Shown here: one piece after another, positions 3,717 through 18,327 of the stretch
Layout: the number at the start of each line of letters is the position of its first letter
How positions within the stretch are numbered: position 1 is the stretch's first letter
Origin: a virus
Reading direction: 5' to 3' (one strand)
Virus genome (UHGV): UHGV-1353415
DNA: 36,357 nucleotides
The notes under the pieces: generated by a model
The model's database searches: none
What the model was told of the DNA's origin: nothing
What the model saw: only the letters and a program-made list of their open reading frames with translations
Made by a program: the position numbers and the translations under genes

Positions 3717-4254
3717 CACCAGTACAGAGCGCGGATGGTTAATACCAACCAGTGGCGATCCGGATTATGACGAAGCGCTCGACAGGCTGTTAAGCCAGTG
3801 GATGCGTAACGTTTCCGGTCTGTCTGCCGGGATGGTTCGTCCGCGCTGGCAGAAAGAGCAACCGCCACTGCTACCGGCTGAAACGAACTGGTGTGCGTTT
3901 GGGGTTATCGGATGGTCAGGTGATGACAGTCCGGCATTCACCAGACAGACCGATGATGGCTCTCAGCTCTGGCGGCATGAAACGATTGAGTGTATGGCTT
4001 CGTTTTATGGTCCGGCGGGGATGGTGTATGCGTCCCGGTTTCGTGACGGTATATCTGTACCGCAGAACAATGCAGCACTGAATGCGCTGGGGCTGTCTCT
4101 TGGCGATTACACAGGTCTGACTCCCTTCCCTGAACTTATTAATCAGCAATGGGTCCGCCGCTACGATATGACGGTGCGTCTGCGCCGGAAGGTTGTGCGC
4201 GAGTACGGTATTAAATCGCTGGTGGAAGCACCAGTCATCTTTTTCGGAGATTAA
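3688..4254 (+). CDS. tail completion / sheath-terminator-like protein (start uncertain)
   Basis: 188-aa ORF immediately upstream of the sheath gene. Confidence 0.35.
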   Translation: MMGELRLSNNTSTERGWLIPTSGDPDYDEALDRLLSQWMRNVSGLSAGMVRPRWQKEQPPLLPAETNWCAFGVIGWSGDDSPAFTRQTDDGSQLWRHETIECMASFYGPAGMVYASRFRDGISVPQNNAALNALGLSLGDYTGLTPFPELINQQWVRRYDMTVRLRRKVVREYGIKSLVEAPVIFFGD

Positions 4255-9367: not shown

Positions 9368-10432
9368 ATGTCACAGAACTGGATGAGACATTTCGAGCTG
9401 CAGCTTGTGGACGGGAACGGTCAGGGAATTGAGCTAAGTGATTTCAAAGTCACCTTTACGATCGACTGGTTCAACATCAGCAGCGCGTCCCGGGTAGGGA
9501 CTATCAAAATTTATAACCTCTTGGCAGATACTGTGAACCGAATCACCGGGAAGGAATTTTCGAAAGTGCGGCTGATTGCCGGTTACGACGGTATCGCGCC
9601 GGAGGTGGCGGCAAGCGACGTCGGGACCGTGCGCGAAGTCGACGCGGCAGATGTGGGCCAGAGTGATGGCCGCAACTACGGGCTGATTTTCAGCGGAGAA
9701 ATTCGCTACTCGGTCACAGGAAAAGACAGCCCTATTGATTCCTATGTCCTGATTCAGGCAGCAGATACGGATCTGGCATTTGCCACCAGTATAACCTCAC
9801 AGACGCTGGCTGCCGGTTACACGGTCGCTGATGTGAACCGTGCGCTGATGAAAGACTTCGAAGCCAAAGGCGCGACCGAAGGCCTGACGCCTGAAATGCC
9901 TGCTACTGTATTCCCCCGGGGGCGGGTGCTCTTTGGCATGACGCGGCATCTTATGGATAACGTAGCCGGGCAATGTGGCGCAACATGGCAATTCGTGGAC
10001 GGTCAACGCCAGATGGTGGCGAATAACGAATATGTTCATGAAGCGATTGTGCTCAACAGCGCCACCGGGCTTATCGGCATGCCGCAGCAGACTATCGGCA
10101 ACGGCGTAAACGTCCGCGCGCTTATTAATCCGAACATCCGGGTTAATGGGCTCATTCAACTGGATCAGGCTTCCGTATATCGCACCGCGTTGTCGAACAA
10201 CGATATTGCGATGGCTGGTGGGCAGATCACCGACCAGAACACGGACGGAAATATCACGCTAAGCGGCACCACAGCACAACCTGCCAGCATCGCAACGGAT
10301 GGCGTTTATATTGTGCGCGGGATTATGTACACTGGCGATACAAGGGGCCAGGCGTGGTACATGGATATGATGTGCGAAGCGCGTGGCGCGGCGGATCTTG
10401 TTTCCTCATCAGCGAGGGAAAGAGGGCTTTAA
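9368..10432 (+). CDS. baseplate hub-like protein
   Basis: 354-aa ORF between tape measure and spike-like gene; size and position fit a hub protein. Confidence 0.45.
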   Translation: MSQNWMRHFELQLVDGNGQGIELSDFKVTFTIDWFNISSASRVGTIKIYNLLADTVNRITGKEFSKVRLIAGYDGIAPEVAASDVGTVREVDAADVGQSDGRNYGLIFSGEIRYSVTGKDSPIDSYVLIQAADTDLAFATSITSQTLAAGYTVADVNRALMKDFEAKGATEGLTPEMPATVFPRGRVLFGMTRHLMDNVAGQCGATWQFVDGQRQMVANNEYVHEAIVLNSATGLIGMPQQTIGNGVNVRALINPNIRVNGLIQLDQASVYRTALSNNDIAMAGGQITDQNTDGNITLSGTTAQPASIATDGVYIVRGIMYTGDTRGQAWYMDMMCEARGAADLVSSSARERGL

Positions 10433-10764
10433 TGAAACGGTTATGTTTGGCGTTAGTTATGATGGTTACTGCTCCGGCGATGGCTGCAATTCAGTGCGGC
10501 AACTACACGATGACCGGTGACGGAATGACTGTTATTAACGGTGAAACTGTCACATCACAGAAGATAAAATTTCTGGGAAAAGATGGTGACTATTCAAACA
10601 TAAAAATGGACATGGGCCTGATGCCTTCCCGTGATGGTAACAATTACGGCTTTGAGTTTGTGAAACGTAACGGAAAAGCTTTCCTGAATGTCCAACTGCT
10701 GCAGAACAGCATGGATGCGCCGAAAATCATCGGCTCCTTCCCGTGTAAAAAGGTTGATGGTTAA
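10432..10764 (+). CDS. small secreted protein with N-terminal signal peptide (accessory)
   Basis: ATG overlaps the hub stop (TAATG); MKRLCLALVMMVTAPAMA then AIQC looks like a Sec signal peptide with AXA site; about 110 aa. Confidence 0.5.
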   Translation: MKRLCLALVMMVTAPAMAAIQCGNYTMTGDGMTVINGETVTSQKIKFLGKDGDYSNIKMDMGLMPSRDGNNYGFEFVKRNGKAFLNVQLLQNSMDAPKIIGSFPCKKVDG

Positions 10765-10932
10765 CCAAAAGTTACATTTCTGCATAGTGTTGAGTTTGTT
10801 CACATTCACTAAATAATGATTTTTTATCGCTTGCTAGGTGGTTGCATGATCACTAAACTTTGCGAACTTTTAGCGCTCAGCTAACTTTGAATAAGTGGTG
10901 TATAGTCGTTTAAAACGACAGAGGGATTGGGT
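10765..10932 (+). promoter_or_regulatory. AT-rich intergenic region with TATAGT -10-like element (10901..10906) and 15-bp perfect palindrome GTCGTTTAAAACGAC (10905..10919); putative autoregulated promoter/operator
   Basis: Palindrome and -10-like hexamer read directly; only non-coding gap over 100 bp inside the tail gene block; -35 element not confidently placed. Confidence 0.35.
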
Positions 10933-11505
10933 ATGGCGATTAGCTACGCATTTGCGCTGGCAACAATTACACAACAAATGAATCAGGTTCAGGAAGCTGT
11001 TAACGGTGCTTTCAAACCCCTGATCTCTAATGCTTGTGAACTGCCACAACGATTAGATGCTGAAGAGGTATTTCGTCGTTGTACCGCGATTGCTGCACGC
11101 GCTCAAGAAATCGAAAATACCGCGAAGGAAGGCATGTCTCATCTCGAAGCTTTTCGAAATGGGAGAATCATTGTTGATGAGCTTCCGGAAGAGTTTTTAT
11201 CCCATCTCGAAGGTCTTGCCAAGGCATGCCGAAATGCTAAAGGACATTTAGTGGATATGTTCTCTGAAGCGGAAAGGTCCCCTATGTGGCAAGGCCATCT
11301 GCAAATGTTGCGCCCATTAAAACGCAAATATGTTCGTGCGTTGACCGCCGTCGAGAACACTGCAACTCAGTTGGCCGCTGAAGTTAGGCAATCGCAGCCT
11401 TTCCAGGCTGAACTCTTGTCAGATAATGTTACCCGTGAAGAGGCTATTGAACTGATCTCAACATCGCATAAGATGCTGGGAGCCAACGCCCCTAAATGGA
11501 TGTGA
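10933..11505 (+). CDS. hypothetical protein, putative antitoxin/partner of the downstream YafO-like gene
   Basis: ATG at 10933 with SD GAGGGA 6 nt upstream (track start 10927 is TTG); about 190 aa, no recognised motif; stop 1 nt before the next gene's ATG. Confidence 0.55.
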   Translation: MAISYAFALATITQQMNQVQEAVNGAFKPLISNACELPQRLDAEEVFRRCTAIAARAQEIENTAKEGMSHLEAFRNGRIIVDELPEEFLSHLEGLAKACRNAKGHLVDMFSEAERSPMWQGHLQMLRPLKRKYVRALTAVENTATQLAAEVRQSQPFQAELLSDNVTREEAIELISTSHKMLGANAPKWM

Positions 11506-11506
11506 C

Positions 11507-11923
11507 ATGGCAAAAGTCAGTATCACGGGAGAATTGCGTCATTTAGCTGCAGCACATAAGTATGCTCAAATGCTTGCCGATTATATTTCAAAGGGTTCCC
11601 AGTTCTGGTGTTTTGGTTCGTTAGGCGGTTTTGAACGTAACTATGATGCGATGGCTGCCAACATCAGGAAAATTCACTTAAAGCTACCTGGCGATAAACC
11701 CTGGCCTCCAGAAGCATCTCTGAGTGAACGGACATGTGATAATTTTTTGGTATATGCTCAGCATCTTTATATCGATGAACACTATCAGATATTGGCAATC
11801 ATCAGCCCAAACGCTCATCAGCAAGCTGATTCGATGCTTCCCCGGCTGATAAAATTAGCAGAGGAAACCTTCATAGAACTTCCTCCTGATGAACTCGAAA
11901 AATTGAAAACCTACGATTCATAA
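11507..11923 (+). CDS. YafO-family toxin-like protein (putative ribosome-dependent mRNA interferase)
   Basis: 138 aa; blocks IHLKLPGDKPWPPE, SERTCDNFLVYAQ, QILAIISPNAH and LAEETF match the pattern I recall for E. coli YafO (IHLANENNPFPPQ, SRTNDEAHLVYCQ, LLIAILKPEPH, MAEAF). Confidence 0.5.
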   Translation: MAKVSITGELRHLAAAHKYAQMLADYISKGSQFWCFGSLGGFERNYDAMAANIRKIHLKLPGDKPWPPEASLSERTCDNFLVYAQHLYIDEHYQILAIISPNAHQQADSMLPRLIKLAEETFIELPPDELEKLKTYDS

Positions 11924-11924
11924 A

Positions 11925-11948
11925 CCCGCCACCCGGCGGGTTTTTTGC
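11925..11948 (+). terminator. Rho-independent terminator after the two-gene cassette
   Basis: CCCGCC-ACCC-GGCGGG hairpin followed by TTTTTT. Confidence 0.6.
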
Positions 11949-11965
11949 TTTCTGGAGCCTACTAA

Positions 11966-12721
11966 ATGGCAGTATCTGACCAGACCCGCAGCGGCGACCT
12001 TGCCGAAACATTCAAATCTGAACGGGAAACAACAAAGAACCAGATCCGTGTCGCCTTGCCTGGCATTGTTCAGTCATTCGATCCCGACGCGGTGACGGCG
12101 GTTGTGCAGCCAGCTATCCGTTCGGTTGAAAAGGATAACGACGGTAACCGCATTACCAAAAATTACCCGTTGCTGGTGGATGTGCCAGTGGTATTTCCGC
12201 GCGGTGGAGGCTGTACGTTGACTTTTCCGGTTAAAGCCGGGGATGAATGCCTGGTGATTTTCGCCGACCGCTGCATCGATTTCTGGTGGCAGAACGGCGG
12301 GGTGCAGGAGCCTGTCGACGACCGGGTGCATGATTTATCGGATGCTTTCTGTATCGTCGGGCCGCAGTCTCAGGCGCAGAAAATAAGCGGAATAAGCACC
12401 AGTGGCGCGCAGCTGCGTACTGATGATGGCGCTGCGTTTGTGGAAGTGGCCGCAGGCCATAATATCACGGTTAAAACTCCCGGCGCGTTGACGGCGACAG
12501 CAGAAGGAGGAACCACGATCACATCACCCACCATCACGCTAAACGGCAACGTGACAATAAACGGGAATCTCTCTCAGGGGATGGGCGAAAGCGGCGGCAC
12601 CGCGACGATGCTTGGCCCTGTCACGGTGACTAACGATGTAAAAGCTGGTGGTAAGAGCCTGATGACGCACACGCACGGCGGAGTACAGACCGGCGGCGGT
12701 AACACAGGAGCGCCTAACTGA
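11966..12721 (+). CDS. baseplate central spike protein (gpV/gp45-like)
   Basis: 251 aa with Gly/Thr-rich C-terminus and HTHGGVQTGGGNT-type motif; RBS CTGGAGCC..AAATGG. Confidence 0.5.
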   Translation: MAVSDQTRSGDLAETFKSERETTKNQIRVALPGIVQSFDPDAVTAVVQPAIRSVEKDNDGNRITKNYPLLVDVPVVFPRGGGCTLTFPVKAGDECLVIFADRCIDFWWQNGGVQEPVDDRVHDLSDAFCIVGPQSQAQKISGISTSGAQLRTDDGAAFVEVAAGHNITVKTPGALTATAEGGTTITSPTITLNGNVTINGNLSQGMGESGGTATMLGPVTVTNDVKAGGKSLMTHTHGGVQTGGGNTGAPN

Positions 12722-16114: not shown

Positions 16115-16474
16115 ATTTTAACTAATTGTTTTTAAACTGTTTTTTTCATTGCGGGTTTTTCAATGTATAAGTAAGTTAAGCAACTTATCATTGCACAAAT
16201 TGATAAAGATATTGCTGCAAACGCAGTATAGTTTAATGAGCTTGAAATGAAATTAAAGGTCATTACCATGCTTAAGCCATGCATCAAATAAATGCTGTAA
16301 CTTACAGAACCCGCCACCTTGAAGAACTTGGTGTTTATAATTTGAAAAGCTTTGGAGCCAGTACACGCACTTAAAAAAAACAAAAATAGCGGAATCACTA
16401 TGTAAACATTGTAAATGTTAAAGTCCTGCCAGTATGCAACAGCAATAAGCGATAAAAGGGGTAATGACTCCAAC

Positions 16475-16978
16475 TTACTGATAGTGTTTTATGTTCAGAT
16501 AATGCCCGATGACCTTGTCATGCAGCTCCACCGATTTTGAGAACGACAGTGACTTCCGTCCCAGCCTTGCCAGATGTTGTCTCAGATTCAGGTTATGCCG
16601 CTCAATTCGCTGAGTGTAACGCTTGCTGATTACGTGCAGCTTTCCCTTCAGGCGGGATTCATACAGCGGCCAGCCATCCGTCATCCATACCACGACCTCA
16701 AAGGCCGACAGCAGGCTTAGAAGACGCTCCAGTGTGGCCAGAGTGCGTTCACCGAATACGTGCGCAACAACCGTCTTCCGGAGCCTGTCATACGCGTAAA
16801 ACAGCCAGCGCTGGCGCGATTTAGCCCCGACGTATCCCCACTGTTCGTCCATTTCCGCGCAGACGATGACGTCACTGCCCGGCTGTATGCGCGAGGTTAC
16901 CGACTGCGGCCTGAGTTTTTTAAATGGCGGAAAATCGTGTTGAGGCCAACGCCCATAATGCGGGCGGTTGCCCGGCAT
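16475..16978 (-). CDS. insB: IS1 InsB (transposase frame, expressed as InsAB' by frameshift)
   Basis: 167-aa product ..[44 protein letters not shown].. matches IS1 InsB. Confidence 0.85.
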
Positions 16979-17172
16979 CCAACGCCATTCATGGCCATAT
17001 CAATGATTTTCTGGTGCGTACCGGGTTGAGAAGCGGTGTAAGTGAACTGCAGTTGCCATGTTTTACGGCAGTGAGAGCAGAGATAGCGCTGATGTCCGGC
17101 GGTGCTTTTGCCGTTACGCACCACCCCGTCAGTAGCTGAACAGGAGGGACAGCTGATAGAAACAGAAGCCAC
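16897..17172 (-). CDS. insA: IS1 InsA
   Basis: 91-aa product [43 protein letters not shown].. matches IS1 InsA. Confidence 0.9.
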
Positions 17173-18327
17173 TGGAGCACCTCAAAAACACCATCATACA
17201 CTAAATCAGTAAGTTGGCAGCATCACCATAAAAGGTACACAATTGTCATCATTACGCTATTGGCTTGTTTGATAGCGTTGTTCTTTAGGTAACCAGAAGC
17301 TAGCGCTGCAACAAAGCCACCAATAAAGCAAAAGAGAAGAGTGGCAAACATTTCACTGATAAGCCCTTGGCGGTAAGCAATTAATACCGAGAAAAGCATA
17401 ATTATTACCGAAAAACATGCATCTCTTATTGATTTTACGAACATAGAGATATATGGTAAAATTATATAAAAACCCCACTCATATGCAAGAGTCCAGATAA
17501 CCCCGCCAACGATTAAAGATCCATGAATAGAAGGTGTAAGGCCATTAGGGTCAATTATACCAAACGTAAAATATCGGCCAACTTCAACAATAATGTTGTG
17601 AATCCCAATGCTATCGTTGGGTCGAATTAATTCAGAAACACAAACAACGCAAAGCACCATGAATGCATACATTGGAATTAGTCTCTTAACTCGCGCCGAC
17701 AAAAATATTGCAGCATTGTTTATTGGTTTATTTATTATTTTTCTAAAGAAGAGAAACCCTGTAATCATAAAGAATATCATGACTGGAATGGAGCCAAAAT
17801 ATGCAATAGCCAATAAACTATTGTTGCTTGACTTCGCCGTAAATCCATCATTCAAAAATATACTCCATTTATCATGATAAAGATAATTGAACATATATAC
17901 TGAATGGTGAAGGGCGACCATGACAGCCGCCAACCCCCTGAGGCAAGATAAATTGTCATCACCTCGCAACCCAAAAGAAGAGTCTGCAACTAATTCATTC
18001 TTAAACCTTCCGGCAATCCAAAAAACAAAAAATACAGGGATGGAAGATAAAATAAAGATAATAAACGTCAAGTCAAACATAAAAACGCTCACGACCATTA
18101 GGGATTATATAATATCCTGATGTTAAATCATTTAAAGCTATACTTCATTACATTTATATAAAAACGGTAATGGAAAAGATGGTATGAAAATTTCCGCTTT
18201 AAAAACAATTGGATATAATTCTTTCTGTTCTCGTGTTAATCCTATCAAAAAAATGGGATGGGTGCATCATCAACGATGCGCGTGCAGGTTAGTTTGATGA
18301 CTACCCGCTGAAGTGAAAATTGTGTTG

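Follow-up and report, generated by a model that had tools for sequence, protein, structure and literature searches.

What is a two-gene cassette with the appearance of a toxin–antitoxin (TA) pair doing in the tail operon of a phage? The question is raised by UHGV virus genome UHGV-1353415, a stretch of DNA of 36,357 nucleotides (nt), referred to here as the window, which as a whole is a complete temperate Escherichia coli phage whose genes for head and contractile tail are of the SEN34/Brunovirus type. Between the baseplate hub gene and the spike gene of this phage lie gene A, which encodes a helical protein, and gene B, which encodes a protein of the YafO toxin family. We consider it rather probable that the cassette is a phage moron with a type II-like TA pair and a new antitoxin family, serving in defence and/or in prophage stabilization. 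Directly established are the anatomy of the unit, the family and fold of B, the novelty of A, the obligate linkage of the two genes, the purifying selection on both, the mobility of the unit between contexts and its presence or absence at a cargo hotspot.

The unit of about 1.1 kb (positions 10831-11952) consists, in this order, of a predicted promoter, a leader, gene A, gene B and a terminator. Gene A (10933-11505, plus strand, ATG to TGA) encodes 190 amino acids (aa). Its start is backed by the homologues, all of which begin with MAIS or MSIG, and by the Shine-Dalgarno sequence AGAGGGA at 10920-10926. Gene B (11507-11923, plus strand, ATG to TAA) encodes 138 aa. The original prediction, made from the sequence without database searches, had placed both open reading frames (ORFs) after an AT-rich gap, and they are present as described; the gap at 10765-10932 measures 168 base pairs (bp) with a GC content of 0.369. 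It had also described an overlapping stop and start. This is not the case, as the A/B junction reads TGA-c-ATG, with a one-base spacer and no overlap. The lower GC content and different codon usage first noticed by eye are borne out by measurement. The GC content is 0.444 in the cassette compared to 0.54 in the tail genes upstream and 0.51 in those downstream, and at third codon positions it is 0.42 in A and 0.37 in B compared to 0.62 in the hub gene and 0.61 in the spike gene. The relative synonymous codon usage distance of A plus B to the tail genes is 1.17, above that of all 1000 tail segments of the same length (maximum 1.02). The deviant composition of the cassette is not a chance feature.

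The identification of B as YafO-like, originally based on shared sequence blocks, was confirmed by a hidden Markov model (HMM) search and by the modelled fold. B matches the Pfam family YafO_toxin (PF13957) with 62.6 bits, compared to a gathering score of 25 (E-value 4e-17, 87 of the 101 profile positions), and carries the RefSeq label 'type II toxin-antitoxin system YafO family toxin'. It reaches 31.4 bits against the NCBIfam equivalog for K-12 YafO (PRK09885), which has a cut-off of 153, and is 25% identical to K-12 YafO in BLASTP. B is therefore a member of the YafO family and not an ortholog of the K-12 protein. A sequence search found no detectable relative of B among the solved structures in the PDB. 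An AlphaFold2 model built from 24 homologues (predicted local distance difference test (pLDDT) 94.5, predicted template modelling score (pTM) 0.89) gives B the fold of the RelE/ParE superfamily (BECR). A recent classification likewise counts PF_YafO among 13 RelE/ParE toxin families with the BECR fold and gives it antitoxin–toxin gene order and mRNA degradation as its activity (PMC11980606). Residues H57, W66, R75, N79, H86, H104 and E119 are invariant in all 39 distinct B sequences, including the remote ones. H57, R75 and H104 align to identical residues in K-12 YafO and may be the catalytic residues. Judging from these similarities, B would be toxic and would act as an mRNA endonuclease; the ribosome dependence of K-12 YafO is debated (PMC8546651).

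Searches of Pfam, NCBIfam and PADLOC with protein A returned nothing above noise. The protein is a 'hypothetical protein' in RefSeq and belongs to phrog_35514 in PHROGs, for which the function is not known. The original prediction had put A at roughly twice the size of the canonical YafN antitoxin and had seen neither a helix-turn-helix (HTH) nor a Phd/YefM pattern in it, and the searches bear this out: A has no HTH, ribbon-helix-helix (RHH), AbrB or Phd/YefM domain detectable by HMM, none was found by fold with Foldseek, and there is no significant alignment to YafN (best E-value 0.45). The AlphaFold2 model of A (pLDDT 78.7, pTM 0.66) shows a four-helix bundle with helices at residues 3-31, 43-75, 88-115 and 123-154, a low-confidence linker at 157-163, a further helix at 168-181 and a tail that ends in an invariant tryptophan. 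Assignment of this model to a known fold was dropped, as Foldseek against the PDB returned generic helical bundles only (MukF, HepT, talin and designed bundles; best E-value 0.09, TM-score at most 0.5); a sequence profile search of the PDB was empty. A similarity to EAD5 (effector-associated domain 5) in Pfam (E-value 0.0032, 17.7 bits against a cut-off of 27), seen for 1 of 27 family members, was attributed to chance. The A family is tiny: profile searches gave 15 members among 1.84 billion representative proteins and, in a broader search, 54 among 5.8 billion clusters, all named 'hypothetical'. All clusters with a named source come from Enterobacterales (Escherichia, Salmonella, Citrobacter, Klebsiella, Leclercia, Cronobacter, Serratia, Pantoea and Pectobacterium). 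W119, S178, H179 and W189 are invariant throughout the family, and between subfamilies the C-terminal half is more alike than the N-terminal half (24% versus 16% identity). A probably represents a new antitoxin family, and it would neutralize B.

In all 60 loci first tested, which represent 47 distinct cassettes, a YafO_toxin gene lies directly 3' of the A homologue, and the partner genes in related loci are all PF13957. Of these distinct cassettes, 45 have a stop-N-ATG junction. Of the other two, L018 has the stop followed by ATG without a spacer, and in L064, a Klebsiella-type locus from IMG/VR, the A frame is broken. A frameshifted A next to an intact B would argue against A being essential, but this candidate was rejected. 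L064 carries single-base, compensating indels at 4228 and 4391, in G5 and A6 homopolymers, and otherwise differs from L056 at 1 of 992 positions. Because these are homopolymer indels in near-identical sequence, the break is most likely a sequencing or assembly error and not a loss of the antitoxin. When the 39 distinct pairs are compared with one another, identity in A tracks identity in B (r = 0.98), and in 89% of these comparisons A has diverged further than B. Strong purifying selection acts on both genes, with dN/dS ratios (nonsynonymous over synonymous substitution rates) of 0.06-0.13 in A and 0.015-0.05 in B.

The pairing persists down to 17-23% identity in A. Each of the three weakest A matches of the deep search (21-23% identity, E-value about 1e-4) has a YafO_toxin gene after it. 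In phage CUS-3, a YafO_toxin gene (43.6 bits) is preceded by a gene for a 199-aa protein that aligns to A over its full length, matches the C-terminal half of the A profile in hhalign with an E-value of 7.7e-5 and keeps W119, S178, H179 and W189. The CUS-3 genes are ECRS218_0007/0008, both annotated as hypothetical, in the immI region (L068 1860-2863, equal to CP000711 7577-8580). Another distant pair is found in a P22-like phage (L075 1455-2457), of which the downstream gene (130 aa) has no Pfam match on record; the pairs in P22-like phages adjoin mnt/arc and ant/Bro-N in the immI region. In Pectobacterium, a pair of 199 and 139 aa with an overlap of 16 nt lies between an ABC-transporter/phosphoesterase operon and gcvP (L073/L074 4001-5004), and phage genes are absent nearby. 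This stand-alone chromosomal pair shows that the module is autonomous outside phages.

That the cassette is an insertion at a tail junction, as originally proposed, was confirmed by syntenic comparison. Homology to cassette-free relatives ends at 10754-10765 and resumes at 11922/11923; on the hub side, the window is 96% identical to 689R2 up to position 10754. The tail modules of 689R2, SEN34 and YP3 are without A-B, and in E. coli it is present in 37 of the 332 genomes with a match to the hub-to-spike query. Of 5426 complete E. coli genomes, 37 have a copy of the cassette with at least 95% identity, and each copy is chromosomal. A is found in 1 of 50,697 deposited phage genomes with tblastn (E-value at most 1e-3), and the CUS-3 relative is visible by profile comparison only. 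The 60 loci of the core family all lie within phage tail modules, where the unit occupies at least six contexts. One is the hub/spike junction of SEN34-like myoviruses, where two lineages of the cassette occur, with only 62-65% identity between their A proteins. In several siphovirus lineages, the unit lies in the gap that separates the tail chaperone gene from the tape-measure gene. It is also found directly 3' of a tape-measure gene and in three other arrangements. The distant pairs lie in P22-type immI regions, beside a CI-type repressor gene or outside phage modules, and in L065 the pair adjoins a transposase gene.

Related phages have other cargo at the same junction: a 170-aa protein in 689R2, a 266-aa TPR-like protein in YP3 and proteins of 77 and 138 aa in SEN34. 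Other E. coli prophages carry DUF4282 (79 aa), a DUF2335 membrane protein (190 aa) or a 241-aa protein annotated as HMG-box, and L072 (1857-3016) carries a coupled pair of 243 and 142 aa, unrelated to A-B and of a function that is not known. Loci with alternative junction cargo are L069-L072, L001 and L003. SEN34_21, with 138 aa at the same site, was considered as a counterpart of B and rejected as unrelated cargo, since it has no match to YafO or to another toxin. In a search against PADLOC, the alternative cargo gave nothing but a chance-level HEPN_IX match (E-value 0.009). Each of these genes may have a lysogen-expressed function, and the junction between hub and spike in SEN34-like myoviruses is a hotspot for cargo. 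A search for flanking direct or inverted repeats, as a sign of transposition, gave none above chance-level short matches. Exchange of cargo by recombination at shared boundary sequences would be a likelier route than transposition.

The genes around the junction define the limits of the hotspot. The conserved left flank is the baseplate hub gene (9368-10432, plus strand), which has a weak Pfam match to E217_GP41 and is annotated as baseplate hub in SEN34 and YP3. Its stop codon is overlapped by a gene for a 110-aa signal-peptide protein (10432-10764, plus strand; GC 0.444; RefSeq 'STY1065/STY2022 family'; phrog_3443). The original prediction had named a coupled secreted-protein gene after the hub gene. 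The gene is present as stated, but it is itself variable: it is missing from SEN34, and different genes are found at its position in L044 and L050. The hotspot therefore begins directly after the hub gene and comprises two cargo slots, of which this gene fills the first. The conserved right flank is the gene for the membrane-puncturing spike (11966-12721, plus strand), with the Pfam spike N-terminal domain PF18352 (E-value 1.4e-43) and an Apex motif. Past the tail fibres, the phage has genes for an integrase, RecT, a CI-like repressor and replication proteins of the O and DnaB type. Between the tail-fibre assembly gene and the integrase gene lies a region (16132-18098) with an IS1 transposase gene (16475-16978) and a 113-aa ORF (16132-16473), both on the minus strand, adjoining an Acyl_transf_3 gene (17223-18098, minus strand). 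The acyltransferase has 291 aa in the window compared to 395 aa in strain 2016C04-116, and its gene is probably a lysogenic-conversion gene for O-antigen acylation that was disrupted by IS1.

The predicted cassette promoter (10831-10859, plus strand) consists of a -35 element TTGCTA (10831-10836), a 17-nt spacer and a -10 element TAAACT (10854-10859). A sigma-70-type motif, TTGnnn-N17-TA[A/C]ACT, lies at constant distance 5' of A in all 24 distinct leaders and is kept across phage contexts although the DNA further upstream is unrelated. Two Pantoea-type leaders, read by eye, have the same motif with an 18-nt spacer. Two elements in the leader follow. The inverted repeat HP1 (TTAGC-gctca-GCTAA, 10870-10884, plus strand) lies at about +4 to +18, counted from the inferred transcription start, and is kept in the 15 leaders that were aligned. 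In two of the five pairs, changes on both sides preserve the pairing, GC to UA in three sequences and UA to CG in one. HP1 could be an RNA hairpin or an operator; nothing ties the repeat to protein A as an operator. The hairpin HP2 (GTCGTT-taa-AACGAC, 10905-10919) abuts the Shine-Dalgarno sequence, with which it makes up 10905-10926 on the plus strand. The leader of the window as a whole is no more stable than shuffled sequences (z-score +0.38), and covariation is confined to the short HP1. An Rfam scan of 10400-12100 gave a sub-threshold match on the terminator only, and no additional conserved ORF or Rfam RNA was found inside the unit. Pantoea, L008 and Serratia leaders have a GC-rich stem and a T-run at the position of HP2, between the promoter and A and directly before the Shine-Dalgarno sequence; leaders with such features are L005, L060, L008 and L014-L018, about 70-100 nt upstream of gene A. 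This element resembles an intrinsic terminator and may act as an attenuator. The L008 leader folds with a z-score of -3.6.

At the 3' end of the unit, an intrinsic terminator (11922-11952, plus strand) has its stem at 11922-11943, followed by the T-run TTTTTTGCTTTC. The hairpin that the original prediction had counted as the terminator of the cassette is present, but it is not specific to this cargo: because homology to the relatives resumes at 11922/11923, it is common to 689R2 and SEN34, which both have different cargo at this locus. Unrelated siphovirus contexts have a near-identical tail, GGTTTTTTGCTTTCT, 3' of A-B, and this shared sequence may be a common recombination boundary for cargo swaps at tail-module hotspots. 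Terminators elsewhere lie at 3427-3460 in L001 and 3349-3385 in L002, and directly after gene B in L009, L014 and L017.

We propose the following account. The segment 10831-11952 would be an independently transcribed, horizontally mobile moron set into the late tail operon between hub and spike. B would be a YafO-family endoribonuclease of the RelE/ParE BECR fold that cleaves mRNA and thereby arrests translation. A would be translated first, coupled to B through the TGA-c-ATG junction, and would most likely bind and neutralize B through its conserved C-terminal half (AExSxxW119 ... S178-H179 ... W189). The sigma-70-type promoter and the terminator would allow expression in the lysogen while the late operon is silent. 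An invading phage that perturbs A or host gene expression would free toxin B, and the most likely benefit would be abortive-infection-type defence of the lysogen and/or stabilization of the prophage. The sequence features expected of a moron are all found, namely presence or absence among relatives, its own promoter motif and terminator, and deviant composition; of the features of a type II module, two small co-oriented genes with the presumed antitoxin gene first, a tight junction and joint inheritance are found. The original prediction had named a B without a match to YafO, or a cassette conserved as a structural component, as grounds for giving it up. Neither ground applies: B does match YafO, and the cassette is no conserved structural part of related tail modules.

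Several points weigh against this account. For toxicity, neutralization, expression and phage resistance it builds on sequence and model evidence. In PADLOC-DB v2.0.0, B has no match and A has a chance-level match to Cas7_IIId only (E-value 0.018). Classical type II autoregulation is unsupported, because A has no recognizable DNA-binding domain. The isoelectric points of A (6.0) and B (5.8) are both mildly acidic, unlike the frequent pattern of an acidic antitoxin and a basic toxin. Co-divergence of A and B is expected from linkage alone for adjacent genes. The predicted promoter fits 8 of 12 consensus positions and was missed by a consensus scan that demanded 9 of 12, and the terminator is no proof of autonomy here, because it is shared with other cargo at the locus. 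The cassette is also co-oriented with the late operon, and transcription during lytic growth is thus expected in addition.

The best-surviving alternative is that A-B is a purely selfish addiction or stabilization module, whose loss kills or arrests the cell while other phages are unaffected. The free-standing chromosomal island in Pectobacterium and the L065 copy beside a transposase gene are typical of selfish TA modules, and the missing PADLOC match fits this reading too. It does not by itself explain the repeated capture of the unit at cargo-exchange sites: the core loci, 60 of 60, lie at tail-module sites where cargo is exchanged, including small membrane proteins of the kind associated with exclusion. 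We regard addiction as the sole role as rather unlikely, and note that addiction and defence are compatible and not mutually exclusive.

A different elaboration gives A two parts. Its C-terminal half would hold the RNase inactive, and its N-terminal helices would recognize a component of the invading phage and release the toxin; or the invariant Ser-His pair would make A an enzymatic, type VII-like antitoxin. The N-terminal helices, the proposed phage sensor, diverge beyond recognition between subfamilies, at 16% identity compared to 24% in the C-terminal half. A-B would then be a two-gene analogue of fused sensor–toxin systems such as CapRel. We hold this version to be unlikely.

That A is not an antitoxin at all appears very unlikely. 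It would instead be a cofactor, a sensor, a chaperone or an RNase specificity subunit, and B would be controlled by leader RNA, attenuation or low expression, or be used in lytic growth to shut off host mRNA. Consistent with this, A is without any known antitoxin hallmark, the leader hairpins are conserved, some variants have the terminator-like element between promoter and A, the cassette and the late operon run in the same direction, and the ribosome dependence of YafO is unsettled (PMC8546651). However, the upstream position of A, its coupling to B (45 of 47 stop-N-ATG junctions), the strict co-occurrence and the faster divergence of A form the classic antitoxin pattern; the unit contains no other conserved ORF or Rfam RNA, and the stand-alone chromosomal copies speak against a role in lytic growth. 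Lastly, position and orientation within the tail operon are all that would make A and B baseplate proteins with a part in structure or assembly, as their neighbours are, an idea with practically no chance of being right, since it is refuted by the presence–absence pattern (689R2, SEN34 and YP3 have no A-B, and of the 332 E. coli hub-spike genomes only 37 have it), by the occurrence of the pair in unrelated siphovirus tails, immunity regions and a non-phage locus, and by the RelE-superfamily nature of B.

The cassette would add a YafO-based system to the prophage arsenal of clinical E. coli, Salmonella and Klebsiella, provided that it confers defence. The original prediction had called the pairing non-canonical and possibly undescribed. 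A literature search found no description of the A-B pair, of its RefSeq accessions or PHROGs, or of YafO together with anti-phage terms. The novelty is more modest than this suggests, as exchange of antitoxin families among TA systems is a known theme and expected by specialists. In large surveys, YafO_toxin genes mostly have unknown partners, with 13 partner clusters and 8% known (PMC10790755). The YafO toxin family and the moron logic are known; the presumed antitoxin family and the documented hub-spike hotspot are new. YafO is among the least understood toxins of the RelE superfamily, and A-B offers a compact partner family of 54 clusters. With its four invariant residues, the A family is a testable system for YafO neutralization without a Phd-type antitoxin. 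As far as can be read from the genomes, the cassette also documents a phage-borne, apparently self-transcribed TA unit that moved among at least six tail-module sites, and the hub-spike hotspot is useful for mining further lysogen-expressed functions.

Among known systems, yafN-yafO of E. coli K-12 shares with the cassette the PF13957 toxin family, the antitoxin-then-toxin order, the tight junction and presumed mRNA cleavage leading to translation arrest. With a toxin below ortholog level (25% identity) the cassette is not a yafNO member. Its partner A is a 190-aa helical bundle, whereas YafN is a 97-aa antitoxin of the Phd/YefM type, a class to which A does not belong, and the cassette lies in a phage moron whereas yafN-yafO lies in the SOS-regulated dinB operon. 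Type II antitoxins without a DNA-binding domain exist: PaaA2, which acts on ParE2, and epsilon of epsilon-zeta neutralize by binding. Their operons include a separate regulator (PaaR2 and omega, respectively), whereas the cassette has two genes only, and A has no known similarity to either antitoxin in sequence or fold. CUS-3 ECRS218_0007/0008 is a distant member of the same A plus YafO pairing, with 17% identity in A and 39% in B; it differs in its 16-nt overlap and in lying beside mnt and ant instead of in a tail module. RelE/ParE toxins in phage defence, such as that of the HigB-type toxin–antitoxin–chaperone (TAC) module (PMC11980606), belong to the same fold superfamily, and the proposed logic, an RNase toxin freed on infection, is the same. 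The TAC module has known antitoxin types, a SecB-like chaperone and a demonstrated phenotype, whereas A-B has a new partner and a proposed role in defence. In its genomic setting, the cassette resembles HK97 gene 15, the founding moron, at the tail chaperone/tape-measure site (Juhala 2000; Cumby 2012; reviewed in PMC3594210). Gene 15 is likewise an independent promoter–gene–terminator unit of deviant GC content within a tail operon, and many A-B copies lie at the identical site. The HK97 gene encodes a single product, gp15, a small protein of the inner membrane that acts in superinfection exclusion, whereas A-B is a toxin–antitoxin-type pair.

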